Shown: piece by piece, positions 3,317-60,875 of the stretch
Layout of the letters: every line of letters begins with the position of its first letter
Numbering within the stretch: the stretch's first letter is position 1
NCBI GenBank assembly: GCA_051117555.1
Contig: JBNPEG010000006.1
Location: 10,996 to 74,995 of the forward strand
Origin: Elainellaceae cyanobacterium
Lineage (GTDB): Bacteria > Cyanobacteriota > Cyanobacteriia > CAZCXK01
Reading direction: 5' to 3'
DNA: 64,000 nt
The notes under the pieces: generated by a model
The model's input: only the letters and a program-made list of their open reading frames with translations
Databases searched by the model: none
Told to the model about the DNA's origin: nothing
Translations under genes and position numbers: made by a program

Positions 3317-4963
3317 TTACAAGTCATACAAACTCACAAATGAGGTGGGAACGTTACTCTTGAAGGAGTCAACTTTCTGGCCGATTTTATCTAGATGAGA
3401 TATGACAAATTCGGTCTCGTCTCGCAGCCGAGAATCGGAGACTAAAAACCAAACTCTAGGTTCGCCCTTGAATTGATTAATATCATTTCGATACCCAACT
3501 TTCTCATCTTGGGTTGATATTGTCTGGGTGAGATCATCGTCTAAATCGATGCCGATTTTATATTCATCCGGTGTGAAACCATACCGAGCGGCATAGTATC
3601 TAAACTGAAACTTTCCTTTTTGAAACACATAGATCTCATCACCAGGTTGATGATGATCTCGGACATAATCCATGACAGGTTTAATGTTTTCAAGCATGTA
3701 AGGCTTTACTAAAAATAAGCACCCTTCTACCACGGGAAAGCCTAGGATAAAGATTGCAATTAAACCACTTGCTAGCGCGCTTTTGACGCGGACGCTTTCT
3801 AGAATATTTGTCAATCCTTTGACGAGGAGAATGATAAAGAAAGGAGCCAAGAATAGTACTAATCGATTATCAAACGGGTATTGGTGAAGATATCCGGCTA
3901 GGAGCGTTAATAGGGCAGGAGTTATTAACGAAAAGAGATGAACTCGCTGATGTTTAAATAGCGAGATGCAGCCAATTAAGAACATCAAACCTGCGAGTTC
4001 ACTAATGACAGGCGGGAAGCCTAACGGTTTATAGAAGAAAAGGCGCGTTGCGTCAAAAAACCAGCCCCCATCCCACGGCGATTCAGGAAACTCATTTGAC
4101 CACGTAAAGGGTAGGAACTTGTTGCTGCGAATATCAGCCAACGAAATTAGGTAAAAAGCGATAAAGCTACTCAGCCAGATACCATAAATGCCTAGCCTCT
4201 GACCGATTTGATCTGGCGCAATTTGATCTGGTGAAATTTGATCTGGCGCAATTTGGCTCTCTTGACGGGTCGTTAGAGACCTTTTTAGATACCTTTGTAG
4301 ATCTGAGATTAGATAAACAAGCTCAACCCCGGCAAGAATAAACACCACAGGATGTGAAAACCAAATGGCGATCGCTCCCACTAGACCTGTCCATATAGTT
4401 CGAGCTGGGGTCAATGCCTGAGTGTGGCTATGGAGTAACACCCAAAACATGACTAACCCAATTGCTACATCACTCGCGTATTGTTTGGTTTCTGATGCGT
4501 AATAGACCAAATATTGGTTGCTTGAAAATAAAGCTAGAGCGAATAATGTTCCTCTTTTATTAAGATAAAATCTCGCTAGCCGATAAAAAATAAAAAGCGA
4601 AAAAATTGACACCAGCAGCGGAAATAATCTCAGTGCATACTCATTATTTCCAAACAGTTGAACAGCTAGTTTCTCAACCATCAGAAAACCAACAGGTGCT
4701 GCTTGGTCATAGTCAAGCGGCTGTAAGAAATCGAGATAGGAACTGTTCACAATATTGAGAGCAATTTTAGCCTCATCTGCCCAGAGTGAACGGTTATAGA
4801 GATACTGAACCAGCCGAATTAAAATCCCGAAGCCAATGATTATAATTACCCATTTTCTAAACGGGATTCTCAAACCTTTTTTAAGCATAAAACCTGCAAT
4901 TATATCGTTCCTAAATCGCTTGTGAATTGTGTGTGAGGGTGGGACGGTTGGCGATCGCCCCAC
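3317..4963 (-). CDS. polytopic membrane glycosyltransferase, family 39 / ArnT-PMT-like (undecaprenyl/dolichyl-phosphate sugar transferase family)
   Basis: Many predicted TM helices. First periplasmic loop has the SLWADEAKIALN (DE-x-x-A) motif typical of GT39/GT83 (ArnT/PMT). Overall topology resembles ArnT-like proteins. Real start may be the internal MLKKGL. Confidence 0.55.
   Translation of the reverse strand: MGRSPTVPPSHTIHKRFRNDIIAGFMLKKGLRIPFRKWVIIIIGFGILIRLVQYLYNRSLWADEAKIALNIVNSSYLDFLQPLDYDQAAPVGFLMVEKLAVQLFGNNEYALRLFPLLVSIFSLFIFYRLARFYLNKRGTLFALALFSSNQYLVYYASETKQYASDVAIGLVMFWVLLHSHTQALTPARTIWTGLVGAIAIWFSHPVVFILAGVELVYLISDLQRYLKRSLTTRQESQIAPDQISPDQIAPDQIGQRLGIYGIWLSSFIAFYLISLADIRSNKFLPFTWSNEFPESPWDGGWFFDATRLFFYKPLGFPPVISELAGLMFLIGCISLFKHQRVHLFSLITPALLTLLAGYLHQYPFDNRLVLFLAPFFIILLVKGLTNILESVRVKSALASGLIAIFILGFPVVEGCLFLVKPYMLENIKPVMDYVRDHHQPGDEIYVFQKGKFQFRYYAARYGFTPDEYKIGIDLDDDLTQTISTQDEKVGYRNDINQFKGEPRVWFLVSDSRLRDETEFVISHLDKIGQKVDSFKSNVPTSFVSLYDL
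4206..4256. repeat. in-frame 15-bp tandem repeat (x3.4) inside the GT39-like gene, encoding (PDQIA/S) repeats
   Basis: Read directly: atttgatctggcgca / atttgatctggtgaa / atttgatctggcgca / atttgg. Translated on the minus strand as QISPDQIAPDQIAPDQIG. Confidence 0.8.
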
Positions 4964-5001
4964 CCCTCACACCCCATCTGGGATTGCTATAGAACGTTAG
5001 T

Positions 5002-11770: not shown

Positions 11771-13372
11771 ATGCCAGCTTTGCAGGACGATAACGAAACT
11801 CATCAATGCATAATGTGTATGGCAAAAACTCGTGGTGCGATCGCAGCAGGTCATCCGCAAACAGTCGAAGCTGGGCTTGAGATGTTTCGGCTTGGGGGGA
11901 ATGCGTTTGATGCCGCGATCGCCTCTGTTCTAGCATCGTTTATCACCGAACCTGCACTCACCTCACCCGCAGGTGGGGGTTTTTTGCTGGCGCATACGGC
12001 TCAAAATCAGCAGATTCTGTTTGATTTCTTTGCTCAAACTCCACGACAAAAACAACCTCTAGATCAGATTGATTTTTATCCGATTCAGGTCGATTTTGGG
12101 ACAGCCGTTCAGGAATTTCATGTCGGTTTGGGATCAATGGCAGTTCCAGGGGCGATCGCGGGTGTCTTTCACGTTCACCAAAGGCTAGGTCGCTTGCCCC
12201 TCCATGTCGTCGCTGAGCCTGCGATTCACTACGCAAAATATGGCATCGGTCTGAGCGAGCTCCAAGCCTATTGTTTCGATATTCTCTCTCCCATCTTGCT
12301 GGCGGACGATGCCATGAAAGCGGTGGTTGCGCCTCACGGAACGCTGCTGAAAGCAGGGGATCAGCTGCGTATGACTGATTTGGCAGACACTCTCACCTAT
12401 TTAATCAATCACGGAGCACGAGAATTTTATGAAGGTGATATTGCCCACCAACTTGTTCGAGACTGTCAGATTCGAGGGGGCTATCTAACGCTCGATGATT
12501 TGCGTCACTATCAAGTAATCGAGCGCACTCCGCTGACGACGCAGTATCGAGGCAAAACTCTGCTGACAAACCCACCTCCTAGCTCGGGAGGCGCACTCAT
12601 CGCATTTTCGTTGGCACTGCTGTCCATGATTGATGTGGGTCGGCTCGATTTTGGCTCGGCAGAGCACATAAGTATTCTCGCCCACGCCATGAGCCTAACG
12701 AATCAGGCCCGAACGGACGGCTATGATCAGCACTTATACGATCCCGATATTTTGCACACATTTTTATCAGCTGACCATCTCAGCTCCTATCGGCATTTGT
12801 TTTCTAGCGTCACCAACAAATGGGGAAGCACGACGCACATCAGCGTGCTCGATGAAGACGGAAATGCAGCTAGTGTCACGGCCTCCAATGGAGAGGGCGC
12901 ATCGTATGTAATTCCTGGAACAGGCATTATGATGAACAACATGCTGGGAGAGGCTGACTTACACCCAACCGGATTTCACCACTGGCGTGAAAATGTTCGA
13001 ATTTCGTCGATGATGGCTCCTACGATCGTGTTGGGCCATGATTATCCTGAGATTGTAACGGGTTCTGGCGGTTCTAACCGCATTCGCACGGCAATTTTAC
13101 AGATTATCTCGAACCTAATCGATTTCAAGATGCCTGTGAATGATGCCGTCAATCGGGGGCGGATTCACTGGGAAAATGGCGTTCTCAACCTTGAACCCGG
13201 CTTTGACGTAGATGTGGACGCAGCCATGCTGCCCGCTGATAGCGTGATTCTTCCATGGAGTCAGCACAATTTATTCTTCGGAGGCGTGCATACGGTCACG
13301 CAGCTTGCCCCTAGTCAGTTTGAGGGAGCAGGCGATCGCCGCCGTAGTGGAGCGTTCGCTCAATGTGATTAG
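11771..13372 (+). CDS. ggt: gamma-glutamyltransferase
   Basis: Ntn-hydrolase autoprocessing/nucleophile site GSTTHISVLDEDGNAASVTASNG. Conserved GGT small-subunit motifs. Length ~530 aa. Confidence 0.85.
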   Translation: MPALQDDNETHQCIMCMAKTRGAIAAGHPQTVEAGLEMFRLGGNAFDAAIASVLASFITEPALTSPAGGGFLLAHTAQNQQILFDFFAQTPRQKQPLDQIDFYPIQVDFGTAVQEFHVGLGSMAVPGAIAGVFHVHQRLGRLPLHVVAEPAIHYAKYGIGLSELQAYCFDILSPILLADDAMKAVVAPHGTLLKAGDQLRMTDLADTLTYLINHGAREFYEGDIAHQLVRDCQIRGGYLTLDDLRHYQVIERTPLTTQYRGKTLLTNPPPSSGGALIAFSLALLSMIDVGRLDFGSAEHISILAHAMSLTNQARTDGYDQHLYDPDILHTFLSADHLSSYRHLFSSVTNKWGSTTHISVLDEDGNAASVTASNGEGASYVIPGTGIMMNNMLGEADLHPTGFHHWRENVRISSMMAPTIVLGHDYPEIVTGSGGSNRIRTAILQIISNLIDFKMPVNDAVNRGRIHWENGVLNLEPGFDVDVDAAMLPADSVILPWSQHNLFFGGVHTVTQLAPSQFEGAGDRRRSGAFAQCD

Positions 13373-16162: not shown

Positions 16163-16420
16163 TGATATATAGCAATCACAGGATATGTAGCAATCACAGA
16201 TGCGTTGTGAGCGGTGGGGCGGTCGGCGTATGCGTCTAGCGCATGTGTGAGATCCCCCGCTGACGCTGCCCGAAAAAGGGGGCATTTACAGGTCGTTGAA
16301 GTCCCCCTTTTCAAGGGGGATTTAGGGGGATCTCTAGGGCGTTACGCTAAATACATACCGGTCGGCGACCGCCCCACCGCTCACACACAATTTACAAGCA
16401 ATTTAAGGATCGCTATATAG
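16163..16420. repeat. foldback / MITE-like dispersed palindromic element (copy A, full length)
   Basis: Long imperfect palindrome. Inner TIRs tgtgagcggtggggcggtc (16206-16224) and gaccgccccaccgctcaca (16367-16385). Outer ends atatagcaatc ... gatcgctatat. The interior is rich in ccccc/ggggg hairpins. Related copies at 60802-60875 and 42100-42270. Confidence 0.5.
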
Positions 16421-35012: not shown

Positions 35013-35351
35013 CATTCCGTACTGTACGGCATCATTTTATCTGGCTAGAGAACAATCTGAAGAGGGGGTGCTCCCTCATTCTTGCTGCTGCATTTGGCTT
35101 TCTTGAATCGCAGTTGCCAGGCTAGTTAACTAGTAGGTATCTGCGATTCACGGTTCTAACGCATATATCATTGCCCTTGACTATTGTCTTGTTAGGTCGG
35201 GTGTCGTATCTACACGTTTTGGATAGGATATCCACCTTAGATTCAAGGCGGTAGGAATGCATCAATGAATGATGTTGTTTCAGACTAAAGTCTGCTGCTG
35301 AAGCGTGCGTTCGACAGGTAATCTAGAGAAGAGAGCTGCAAAATCTTACGA

Positions 35352-38830: not shown

Positions 38831-41467
38831 CTATTCTTCAATATGCTCTGGCGCTTCGCTAGCCTCACTCAACGCGTCTTCGTCAGACTCATCGGCTTCT
38901 TCGCCAGCTTCGGCAGTTCCTTCTGCTTCAGGTGGCACAAGTGCTACGGCAACAATGGCATCATCTTCATCTAATCGTTGGACATGAACCCCCGTTGCCA
39001 TGCGAGATTGGCACGAGATTGCATTGACCGATTGACGAATAATAATCCCTCGGCTGGTCACCAAAATCATTTCGTCATTCTCACCAACGATTTGCAGCGC
39101 GGCAAGCTGATCATTGGGCTTACGAAATTTAATCGCACGTAGTCCCATACCTGCTCGATTTTGCAACCGGAAATTAGCCACAGGGACCCGCTTCCCTAAT
39201 CCCGCTGTCGTGATCACCAGAACCCACGGGCCTTGACCTTGTTCCCGTGTCGGACACTCAGAGTCTGATTCGTCAGACTCATCATCTACGATGTCGTCAG
39301 GAGTATTAACCACCAAACTCTCAACCAATTGCCCAGGTAAAATATCCATGCTGATCAGCTCATCGCCGCTGCGAAGTGACATAGATTTTACCCCACGAGT
39401 TGGGCGACTCAATGGACGAAGCTGGTCATGATCGGCTCGAAAATGAATCGTCATTCCTTGGCGGGTGCCGATGATGATGCTGTCTTCTGCACGAGCGCGG
39501 CGCACCCATCGGAGCTGATCGCCTTCTTCCAAGGAAATTGCAATTAAGCCGTTTGCACGAATATTACTAAATGCTGAAAGCTCTGTTTTCTTGATATAAC
39601 CGCCCTGAGTCAGCATTACGAGATATTCGTCGTCCGTAAATTCGGTGACTGGCACAATCGACGTGATTTTCTCTTCCCTGGAGATAGGTAGCATTTGGAC
39701 AATTGGGATACCACGAGACGTTCGAGACCCGGTCGGTATTTGGTACGCCTTCACGCAATAGGCAACGCCGCGATCGCTAAAAAAGAGAACACTGTCATGG
39801 TCAAAGCAACTTAGGAAATGCTCGACCCCATCATCATCTTTCATTCGAGTGCCAGATTTGCCGCGCGTAGCTCGATTTTGAGCCTCAAACGTGCTAACCG
39901 GCATTCGTTTGATATAGCCCTGTTCTGTTAGAAGGATGATGGCTTGCTCGTTGGCAATCAAGTCTATATCTTCAAGCTCACCTTCGATATGCTCGATGAC
40001 AGTCATGCGAGGCGTCGCATGCTTCGTTCGAAGCTCAGTAATTTCTGTTTCGATAATTTCAAGGACTCGTTCTCGACGCGCCAGAATGTCTCTCAGATCA
40101 GCAATTCGAAATTGTAAATCCTCATGTTCTTGCTGAATTTTTTCAGCCTCAAGTGCAGTCAATCGACGAAGCTGCATTTGAAGGATGGCATCAGCTTGCG
40201 TTTCGGAGAGTTCGTAGGAATCAACGAGTTGCTGCCGAGCTGTGGGGGTATCGGCGGCTCGACGAATGAGCTCAATAATTGAGTCAAGATTTGCTAACGC
40301 AACCAGTAAGCCTTGCAGAAGATGATCTCGTTCTTCGGCTTTACGGAGTTGATATTGAGTCCGCCGGATGATCGTTTCAATTCGGAAGTCTAGAAAGACT
40401 TGAAGCAAATCCCGAATGCCCAGGATCTGAGGCTCTCCATTAACAAGAGACAACATATTAACCCCAAAGTTGCATTGGAGCGGAGTCTGCTTGTAGAGGT
40501 TGTTGAGCACCACACGCGGATAGGCATCACGCTTGAGCTCAATGACAATGCGCATTCCATGGCGATCGCTCTCATCTCGAATATCGGCAATGCCATCTAG
40601 ACGACGATCATTGACCATCTCAGCAATTTTCTCAATGAGAGCTGCCTTGTTGGTTTGATAGGGAAGTTCTGTGATGATAATGGCTTCACGACTCGGGCGC
40701 CCGCGCGACTCAACGGTTTCAATAGTGGCTACACCCCGCATGGTGATTGACCCACGCCCTGTTGCGTATGCATCTCGAATCCCGCTCGTCCCCAGAATTT
40801 GTCCCCCTGTGGGGAAATCAGGACCTGGAATATATTGCAACAACTCTCGCCCCGTCAATTCAGGGTTATGGATCAGCGCAACTAACCCATCAATCAGCTC
40901 GCCCAGATTATGAGGCGGAATATTCGTCGCCATTCCTACCGCAATGCCAGAAGACCCATTGAGTAAAAGTTGGGGTATGCGAGACGGGAGCACAATGGGT
41001 TCTTGTTGCGAACCATCAAAATTGTCCGCAAAATCAACTGTTTCTGCTTCTATGTCTTGAAGAAGCGCATCTGTAGTAAGAGATTGCAGGCGACACTCTG
41101 TGTATCGCATTGCTGCGGGTGGATCATTATCGACTGACCCAAAGTTGCCATGCCCATTGATAAGAGGAGCCCGCATTGAAAAGTTTTGCGCCATTCGCAC
41201 AAGGGCGTCATAAACCGCAGTGTCTCCGTGGGGATGATATTTACCCAGCACCTCCCCGACAACACGGGCGCATTTTCGAAATGGGCGATCTGCGCTCAAA
41301 CCCAATTCGTGCATAGCGTAAAGAATACGGCGATGAACAGGTTTTAGACCATCCCTGGCATCTGGTAATGCTCGACCTACGATGACGCTCATCGCATATT
41401 CGAGATAAGACCGAGACATCTCGTTACGCAGATCGGTCGGGATAATCCGCTCCTGAGGAGTGCTCAT
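38831..41467 (-). CDS. gyrA: DNA gyrase subunit A
   Basis: N-terminus [46 protein letters not shown] with active-site Tyr region. C-terminal beta-pinwheel repeats and acidic tail. Length 878 aa. Confidence 0.97.
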
Positions 41468-41838
41468 ACCTTAAAAGACTCCGAATAATCTCGCTTTCAA
41501 AAAATCAAGCCTGGAACAGCACAGCATGAATAAACTCTTAAAAACATCTGAAGCTGTTACACAAGCGCCTTGGATAAAGATTTAACTCTTGAATTTTAGC
41601 ATAATTTCCCGATGTTTTGCCTTGCTAAACTCTGTCTGTAGACCGCTTGAGTTTTCGAGAAAACAAATTGGATATTTGGTTTAAATTCGTTATCGAAAGC
41701 CGAGGATTTTGAATAATTTTTTTGGGTTGAGTTTGTAAACTCTAAAATCCTTAATTGGAAGATTGAGAAATGCATTTAAAGTGAACCAGGACAAAGCTTT
41801 TCTAAGTCAATACCCAAGGATTAACCAACCTTTAATAG

Positions 41839-41887
41839 ATATTGTGAACTCGTTCTAAAAGAATCTTTTAGAACGAGTTCACAATAT
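41839..41887. repeat. perfect 49-bp palindrome (23-bp arms, 3-nt spacer)
   Basis: atattgtgaactcgttctaaaag-aat-cttttagaacgagttcacaatat has exact inverted symmetry. Confidence 0.85.
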
Positions 41888-42099
41888 GCACTAAAAACAG
41901 AATTCAGATATGCATCAGCAATCTAATTGTGAGCGATAGGGCTACCAAATCATTCATGAAATGGAAGTGCGGGAAGCTTGCCTGCCTTAGCAAAGCCTTT
42001 CCGTCAGGAGGAGTAAAATACTAATGCTATGCATTGAAAAGCGTTGGCGTAGCCTTGCCACAGGCAAAACGCACTAGTACAAGACAGCGGAAGTTTCAT

Positions 42100-42270
42100 A
42101 ACCATAGTGTGAGCGTCTCGCTCACATCGCGGGCAAAATGCTCGCACTCTTATAGGGTTGGCTTATTTTTGCCAAACAGTACTAGAGATTTTCACACATC
42201 ATTGGGATTGCCACATTAAATTCGACAAGAATAGGCTTGCCGAAATTCACAAGCAATTTAGGACCGCTAT
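42100..42270. repeat. degenerate copy of the foldback/MITE-like family (copy B)
   Basis: Starts gtgtgagcgtctcgctcaca (hairpin). Ends attcacaagcaatttaggaccgctatat, matching the tail of copies A and C. Confidence 0.35.
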
Positions 42271-42779
42271 ATCTTAGCTAATTGACTCAAGAAAATTTAA
42301 CAGATGCAGTTTGAAGGAGTGCGTTCGGCATATGAGATAAAACATTTATATGAAGTAAAAAGTAAGAAAAATTAGAAATTAATAGGACGATCCCGAACTG
42401 TTCTAAAATAGGAGTGCAGACCTGGCCACGTTAGCAAAACCTTTCTGCTAAGAGAAATAAGACGCCAATACTATGCATCGCTTGAGCGATCGCACTAGAG
42501 ATTCAGACAATTCATTTGGGGTGGCTTCCTAATCCACTAAGCACCCATTTCTTCGTAGAAATAAGCTAAGAAACATGGATTAAATAGTCTGTTAAATTGT
42601 CATATTTTCAGGAGCACAGCATGACGTGCTCTTACCCAGGAAAATCTTATATTAATAAATTTTCATTCTCAAGTTCGTAAATCAGACACTTAAGCGGCGA
42701 TAAGTTTTGAGTGTATTAAAGATTTTTAGAGTGTCATTCTAGGCAAAATCAACCCACCCGAAAATTTTTCCTGCTCTAC

Positions 42780-43151
42780 TTAAGACTTTTGCCAAACGAC
42801 AAGCAATACACCACACACGATGAACCCTAATCCAACGAGCCGCATCGGTGGAATCGACTCTCGAAACACAAAATAACCGACGACAACAGAAAGGACGTAA
42901 CTCAAGGCGACAGATGGCCCAATGACGCTGAGTTTAACGCGCGTTAGCAGGAGAATATAGGTGATGGCACTTAATCCGTAAAACGCTAATCCTCCAAGCA
43001 ATTCGGGGGTGGTAATGATGCTCAACGCATGGTCAATCATGTTTTCGGGAGTCACCCTGCCAAGTTTTAAGGCTCCCAACTTCAAAAAAAACTGACCCGT
43101 AACTGCAATGAGCAGCGATATTACGAAGACGCCAAACTCGATGGGAGTCAC
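42780..43151 (-). CDS. small four-TM transporter, SMR/EamA-like (ArnE/ArnF-like fold)
   Basis: 123 aa with four hydrophobic helices. Overall pattern resembles the DMT-superfamily small subunit. Confidence 0.45.
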   Translation of the reverse strand: MTPIEFGVFVISLLIAVTGQFFLKLGALKLGRVTPENMIDHALSIITTPELLGGLAFYGLSAITYILLLTRVKLSVIGPSVALSYVLSVVVGYFVFRESIPPMRLVGLGFIVCGVLLVVWQKS

Positions 43152-60747: not shown

Positions 60748-60801
60748 AGTTCAAATTTTCCTCTCATCGTTCTTGAGAATGATATAGCAATCCCAGATGG
60801 G

Positions 60802-60875
60802 GTGTGAGCGGTGGGGCCGGCAACGTCCGCCCCACCGCTCACACACAATTCACAAGCGATTTAGGATCGCTATAT
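60802..60875. repeat. foldback/MITE-like family, short copy C
   Basis: gtgtgagcggtgggg-ccggcaacgtccg-ccccaccgctcacac followed by aattcacaagcgatttaggatcgctatat, and preceded by gatatagcaatc. Lies in the divergent promoter region between 60747 and 60992. Confidence 0.5.

Follow-up and report, generated by a model that had tools for sequence, protein, structure and literature searches.

The long AT-rich region upstream of gyrA in this 64-kb stretch of Elainellaceae DNA (the window, at its full length) probably consists of a gyrA control region followed by a nearly neutral, fast-evolving spacer, in which a local duplication, a palindrome and small mobile repeats have accumulated. Its working part would be made up of the Shine-Dalgarno sequence and ~120-nt leader of gyrA, a likely extended -10 promoter, and as much as ~340 nt of the DNA upstream. 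The remaining ~900 bp would be nearly neutral DNA, enlarged and reshuffled, with neither a gene nor a detectable structured RNA. The region and the two genes bounding it are:

38831-41467, minus strand: gyrA coding sequence, 878 aa, with the Pfam domains DNA_topoisoIV and DNA_gyraseA_C; its start codon adjoins the spacer
41468-42779: spacer of 1312 bp, bounded by the start codon of gyrA at 41467 on the minus strand and, at 42780, by the stop codon of the neighbouring ORF
42780-43151, minus strand: intact gene for a small membrane protein of the EamA/DMT family, 123 aa, co-oriented with gyrA

Since gyrA lies on the minus strand, the spacer is upstream (5') of it, and not downstream as the earlier note had placed it. 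The neighbouring gene, which had been taken for a divergent downstream gene, is co-oriented with gyrA, and the truly divergent pair is formed by this EamA-family gene and a deacetylase-like gene (43413-44360). The gyrA product is 97% identical to the GyrA of an Elainellaceae MAG (L001). The EamA-family ORF belongs to a family that is widespread in cyanobacteria, with 780 homologues, nearly all of 122-123 aa; it has a weak Pfam EamA/TMEM234 match, and its product is identical to NCBI MGJ3249762.1, also from an Elainellaceae MAG. The window contains 82 HIP1 octamers (GCGATCGC) and the host is an uncultured, filamentous cyanobacterium; the sole HIP1 site within the spacer (42486-42493) falls inside a repeat unit described below, unit B.

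The spacer is indeed an unusually long gene-free region, the longest ORF-free gap in the window. Its reported richness in AT holds against the coding sequence (GC 0.377 versus 0.489, with 0.477 for the whole window), but not against the adjoining gaps, which are equally AT-rich (43152-43412, GC 0.368; 44361-45291, GC 0.359), so that it has the base composition usual in the non-coding DNA of this stretch. The second of these gaps is itself a long ORF-free spacer of 931 bp, between the deacetylase-like gene and an NYN-domain gene. Its counterpart is also long in two more distant relatives (755 bp in L082 and 775 bp in L084), and it carries an AA/TT/AT signal of period 11 (z 4.5 versus shuffles).

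The close comparators were three (L081, L086 and L001), two of which are short Logan contigs ending inside the spacer. The relatives used are:

L081: Logan contig, 99.4% identical to the window, stopping at window position 42069
L086: Logan contig of 1037 bp, with 98% aa identity in EamA and a four-fold-site identity of 0.88
L001: Elainellaceae MAG JBNPEB01, four-fold-site identity to the window 0.65-0.75, gyrA gene mean 0.70
L082/L083 and L084/L085: more distant, sharing the gene order, with spacers of 739 and 880 bp

The search for further relatives by exact-protein look-up (EamA and deacetylase-like proteins) found none, and a metagenome scan with a promoter 23-mer gave only one unrelated contig. 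In many other cyanobacteria, belonging to several orders (e.g. loci L010, L048, L029 and L064), a deacetylase-like gene and gyrA are divergent, adjacent and 200-500 bp apart. Only in the Elainellaceae-like clade do a small EamA gene and a spacer of 0.74-1.3 kb (GC 0.35-0.38) intervene between them. The direct adjacency found elsewhere makes the EamA gene together with the long spacer a feature of the clade.

The identity profile against L001, computed per 40 nt, is as follows (the last line adds L086):

41453-41611: 97-100% (155/160)
41612-41809, minus strand: 72-85%, moderately conserved gyrA upstream region
41810-42210: random level or gaps
42289-42368: 60-72%
42370-42682: about 40%, random level or indels
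42723-42779: 75-90%
42621-42779, minus strand: 3' flank of the EamA-family gene, 83% against L086, its first ~60 nt 75-90% against L001

The ~150-340 nt directly upstream of gyrA appear to be the sole conserved, plausibly regulatory part of the spacer. The suggestion of a regulatory landing pad for a divergent downstream gene was founded on a mistaken orientation. The segment next to the gene is:

41468-41611, minus strand: near-invariant gyrA leader and putative core promoter, 144 nt, conserved with L001

Its Shine-Dalgarno sequence, GGAG at 41479-41482 in a U-rich context, is common to cyanobacterial gyrA genes. A putative extended -10, TGCTAAAAT at 41593-41601, was assigned by eye and was not listed by the consensus promoter scan. 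Transcription of gyrA may start near 41585, which would leave a leader of ~118 nt. The leader RNA has no excess fold stability (z +0.49).

Gyrase genes of cyanobacteria are subject to a supercoiling-dependent homeostatic control, as described in Synechocystis (PMC9825172), and a constrained gyrA promoter and leader are therefore expected. As with the supercoiling-sensitive gyrase promoters (PMC9825172), the conserved segment found here lies directly 5' of gyrA, has an extended -10-like element and stands in an AT-rich context. Unlike them, it has a leader restricted to the window, L001 and L081.

A second explanation can be given for the near-identity of the leader. In gyrA codons 1-60 (41288-41467), the four-fold identity with L001 reaches 0.86 and that of third positions 0.90, against a gene mean of 0.70, which points to constraints on the 5' coding sequence, or else to a recombination tract that runs on from the leader. 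Moreover, the near-invariant leader is common to the window, L001 and the near-identical strain L081 alone; it is absent in L082 and L084, whose gyrA leaders share with the window solely the U-rich Shine-Dalgarno motif. The high identity running into the first 60 codons, together with this absence, makes a recombination tract an alternative to selection, and the near-identity could thus reflect such a tract and not purifying selection. The gradual decay of identity going upstream fits selection better.

A bolder proposal gives the region a regulatory role of its own. The segment 41468-41611, maybe with the next, moderately conserved 200 nt, would act in cis as a leader or promoter module, specific to the lineage, that senses supercoiling or another signal and so sets gyrase levels, or else the repeat units described below would encode an unstructured sRNA acting on gyrA. 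We regard this as improbable; if true, either alternative would mean that a core topology gene has a new regulatory element in this uncultured family of cyanobacteria.

Two side observations concern the leader sequence. An exact 12-nt repeat, TCATGCTGTGCT (gyrA sense), occurs in the leader at 41518-41529 and again at 42613-42624, where it adjoins the boundary of a 220-nt segment absent from L086; with a chance expectation of ~0.05, it may be a coincidence. The 23-mer covering the putative gyrA -10 (GAAATTATGCTAAAATTCAAGAG) has one exact match in the JGI metagenome collection (L087, 6076-6098), on an unrelated contig ~19 nt upstream of a tRNA gene, a chance match in a promoter-like context.

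The middle of the spacer is occupied by two repeat units, an insertion into one of them and a block shared between lineages:

41935-42077, minus strand: unit A, gyrA-proximal part, alignable with unit B and the one unit present in L086
42078-42185, no strand: insertion in unit A, a hairpin-rich dispersed repeat of ~100-108 nt with CTAG on both flanks
42186-42215, minus strand: unit A, distal part, in which ACTAGAGATTTTCACACATCATTGGG matches unit B at 42494-42519 and also L086
42264-42399, no strand: block C, the sole middle segment alignable in three lineages, at 72-73% identity
42385-42530, minus strand: unit B, paralogue of unit A by its alignment to it

The two ~100-bp units that had been noticed on first reading are truly related. 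Their direct-repeat local score, the best in the spacer, is 29 and exceeds that of all 200 dinucleotide shuffles (mean 13.3, sd 1.45, max 18), with 71% identity across 142 aligned nt. The limit drawn for unit A near 42090 was wrong, and the AGACA said to be shared by both units lies, in unit A, inside the insertion. Their 41 mismatches (25 transitions and 16 transversions) include all 12 types and are accompanied by several indels; such a spectrum, of all types and mostly transitions, is as expected for neutral decay. A TR/VR pair of a DGR was ruled out, as the mismatches are of all 12 types and not adenine-specific, indels are present and both copies are non-coding. There are no tandem repeats in the spacer.

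An nhmmer profile of the units found no copy outside this locus, either in the rest of the window or among 86 related loci, and their confinement indicates a local duplication and not a dispersed family. L086 lacks 42400-42620, hence unit B, and keeps a single unit; the unit is also retained in L081, and L001 is devoid of both. The tail of unit B retained by L086 resembles that of unit A. These arrangements suggest an old duplication followed by a deletion in L086, a polarity that we infer from the sequences. Block C and unit A taken together are 72% identical to L086, below the neutral value of 0.88 at four-fold sites, which indicates that the middle of the spacer evolves at or above the synonymous rate and by structural replacement. 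The identity of block C is likewise at or below this neutral yardstick.

Could a lineage-specific sRNA be encoded by either unit, by both or by block C, as a trans-acting regulator or as part of a very long gyrA 5' UTR? The window, L081 and L086 have all kept the unit, block C can be aligned across three lineages, and a terminator-like hairpin is found on the minus strand at 42221-42244. Moreover, unit B and the L086 unit share two small hairpins, equivalent in position, one of which keeps the loop GAAAGGYTTTG on differing stems (TTAGCA/TGCTAA versus GTCGG/CCGAC), a pattern for which three sequences are too few to judge. However, reading of the sequence shows the stem of this same loop to be disrupted in unit A, the terminator-like hairpin is not conserved in L086 or L001, and L001 does without both units. 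The units fold no better than their shuffles (z +0.5 and -0.6), and the block C consensus folds at only -4.6 and -3.5 kcal/mol on the two strands, with no net covariation. Consensus promoter and terminator scans detected nothing conserved and no convincing promoter before either unit. No known RNA family is present in the spacer: the Rfam gathering scan returned only a distant tRNA, the Rfam E-value scan gave just sub-threshold and spurious eukaryotic miRNA matches on the palindrome, and ARAGORN detected no tRNA or tmRNA in the region. The sRNA or ncRNA locus listed as a candidate in the earlier note is thus left without computational support, and given also a divergence at or above the synonymous rate, we hold an sRNA to be rather unlikely.

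The control region with nearly neutral spacer DNA, which we prefer, is also in keeping with the small repeats. Unit A is interrupted at 42077/42078 and resumes at 42186, with an extra 108 nt between CGCACTAG and AGATT compared with unit B and the L086 unit, both of which lack the insertion. In L001, a non-homologous site (12264-12364) has a copy of the core of the insertion (42086-42186), with 84% identity. There, the L001 copy sits between sequences syntenic to window positions 35078 and 35018, and the window has no copy; its orthologous site carries 34 unrelated nt (GAGGGAGCACCCCCTCTTCAGATTGTTCTCTAGC) and is not a clean empty site. The insertion folds as three separate internal hairpins (z -3.8). 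No terminal inverted repeats were found on 42078-42185, the ends sharing just TAC...GTA (3 nt). CTAG flanks the window copy on both sides, as judged against the uninterrupted unit B and L086 unit, and the L001 copy on one side. From these properties, 42078-42185 appears to behave as a small dispersed repeat, MITE-like, with the difference that bacterial MITEs would be expected to carry a terminal inverted repeat longer than 3 nt and a clean target-site duplication. As a side observation, the presence of GAGGGAGCACCCCCTCTTCAGATTGTTCTCTAGC in the window, in the interval 35018-35078 compared with L001 12264-12385, suggests further small-element turnover between the thioredoxin and S10 genes.

A second repeat family is represented in the spacer by a fragment:

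42244-42272, plus strand: truncated right arm of a foldback MITE, with 2 mismatches in 28 to the family consensus and 0 matches expected by chance

This is the degenerate foldback-repeat copy that had been reported here, and the window contains others of the family, at 60782-60874, 4868-4991 (reverse complement) and 16389-16418. Full copies are those at 60782-60874 and 4868-4991 in the window, L001 5497-5589 and L082 5493-5589. The family is ~95 nt long and folds with a z of -7.8, and its full copies have the terminal inverted repeats TATAGC...GCTATA and an inner GC-rich stem of 16-17 bp; the L082 copy has 27-nt arms that are 81% complementary. An old fragment at the end of block C is found in both the window and L001, with a full copy in L001 90 nt further on. 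Another copy, L086 1-21, upstream of the EamA gene, coincides with the end of that short-read contig. The copies occupy differing sites in L001, L082 and L086: the family is multi-copy, dispersed, and present or absent between relatives.

Both families resemble the bacterial MITEs and small dispersed intergenic repeats reviewed in PMC3184786 and PMC10969869, being short, non-coding, hairpin-forming, intergenic and nested in other repeats, and found at different sites in close relatives while decaying in place. The foldback family moreover shows clear terminal inverted repeats. A transposase cognate to the repeats found here was not noticed in the 64-kb window. Comparison of the spacer with plasmid and phage collections (blastn) gave no match, and a search of viral contigs for the repeats with three patterns gave 0 matches. 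The two families are MITE-like small repeats. The idea of a decayed mobile element is thus supported for the truncated foldback MITE and the ~100-nt dispersed element, but not for units A and B, which were found only at this locus.

The most conspicuous structure of the spacer had also been seen correctly:

41839-41887, no strand: perfect 49-bp palindrome, two 24-nt arms with one central base

Its DNA fold reaches -23.2 kcal/mol (z -11.8). In L081, the 99.4% identical strain, it is imperfect, with a 7-nt deletion and a complemented centre; it is absent from L001, where only the gyrA-proximal arm has a homologue. These differences are consistent with a palindrome that formed recently by inverted duplication and has been unstable since. 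In a loose terminator scan it passes on the minus strand, with 20 pairs, of which 7 are GC, and a tail TATCTATTAA. Like an intrinsic terminator, it would give an RNA stem, here of 24 bp, between two co-oriented genes; unlike a typical one, its stem is far longer and more AT-rich, its U-tract is poor and it is not kept among relatives.

The length of the spacer calls for a separate discussion. A long AT-rich spacer (0.74-1.3 kb) is found in five out of five versions of this gene order despite the turnover of its sequence, and since every member of the clade has it, spacer length could be selected. The spacer might then have been selected as a transcriptional or topological insulator, protecting a supercoiling-sensitive gyrA promoter from the EamA and deacetylase genes. 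Its length and hairpins (the palindrome and the MITE stems) would stop read-through and buffer transcription-induced supercoiling, the sequence itself being irrelevant. The supercoiling regulation of cyanobacterial gyrase genes (PMC9825172), the passage of the palindrome through the terminator-like scan in the gyrA/EamA sense, and the occurrence of hairpin-forming elements in the spacer of the window, L001 and L082 all go in this direction. However, the terminator tail is weak (TATCTATTAA), the palindrome varies between strains and is missing from L001, and L084 has no inverted repeat of at least 16 nt. There is no helically phased A-tract or curved-DNA signal in the spacer at a periodicity of 10-11 bp (z at most 2.1), and other long AT-rich gaps nearby have no such rationale. 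Selection for insulation is in our opinion unlikely. In the explanation that we favor, a control region next to nearly neutral DNA, a possible side effect of the palindrome and the other hairpins would be to stop transcription running on from the gene upstream.

By its size, the unexplained DNA (~0.9 kb) could have accommodated a small gene or a minimal insertion sequence, and the MITE fragments imply that a transposase was once active in the lineage. Nevertheless, it is very improbable that the spacer is what remains of a decayed protein-coding gene or IS. A six-frame Pfam search of the spacer at E up to 1 gave no match, and tblastn of all its 42 stop-to-stop segments matched nothing beyond the orthologous spacers and the copy of the repeat. 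In L082 and L084, gene callers left the spacer empty. The EamA gene is full length, so that the spacer is not its lost C-terminus. These results give no sign of the conserved but frameshifted protein gene that the earlier note had named as a reason to abandon its account. They also agree with its statement that no ORF of 60 aa or more is plausible: a 61-aa ORF spans the inserted element, and in L001 a 59-aa ORF (41596-41775) has lost both the ATG and the reading frame. Also rejected was a frame of 23 codons in block C, which is open in L086 with differences at 9 of the 23 residues and is interrupted by a stop in L001. As for an origin of replication, no match to the DnaA box TTWTCCACA (at most 1 mismatch) was found in 41468-42779, and the window total is below the shuffle mean; with no DnaA-box cluster in the spacer, oriC was ruled out.

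Finally, the window derives from a MAG, and part of the arrangement (42070-42620) might be an artefact of assembling the metagenome at repeats. L081, an independent contig, reaches only to 42069, and L086 runs from a foldback MITE to the palindrome; together, these ends show that the spacer breaks short-read assemblies. But 41468-42069 is reproduced in L081 with 99.4% identity, the L086 sequence runs collinear with block C and unit A except for two clean indels, and units A and B, at just 71% identity, are too divergent to have been collapsed or mis-joined. We thus give very little credit to an artefact.

The history that we propose for the nearly neutral part includes events of four kinds. 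An old local duplication would have produced units A and B. A ~100-nt hairpin-rich dispersed repeat would have inserted into unit A, and foldback MITEs would have inserted and then decayed. An inverted duplication of one arm would have produced the long palindrome.

In conclusion, the conspicuous AT-rich 'gene desert' would be an ordinary feature, the upstream region of gyrA plus repeat debris, in a locus whose gene orientation is now corrected, and this has little import beyond annotation. The analysis documents two uncharacterised small repeat families of the Elainellaceae, one a foldback MITE of ~95 nt, the other an element of ~100 nt with three hairpins. Both break short-read assemblies and vary between close strains, which makes them useful for MAG curation and strain typing. 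The near-invariant gyrA leader is a reasonable target for studies of gyrase homeostasis in this clade.
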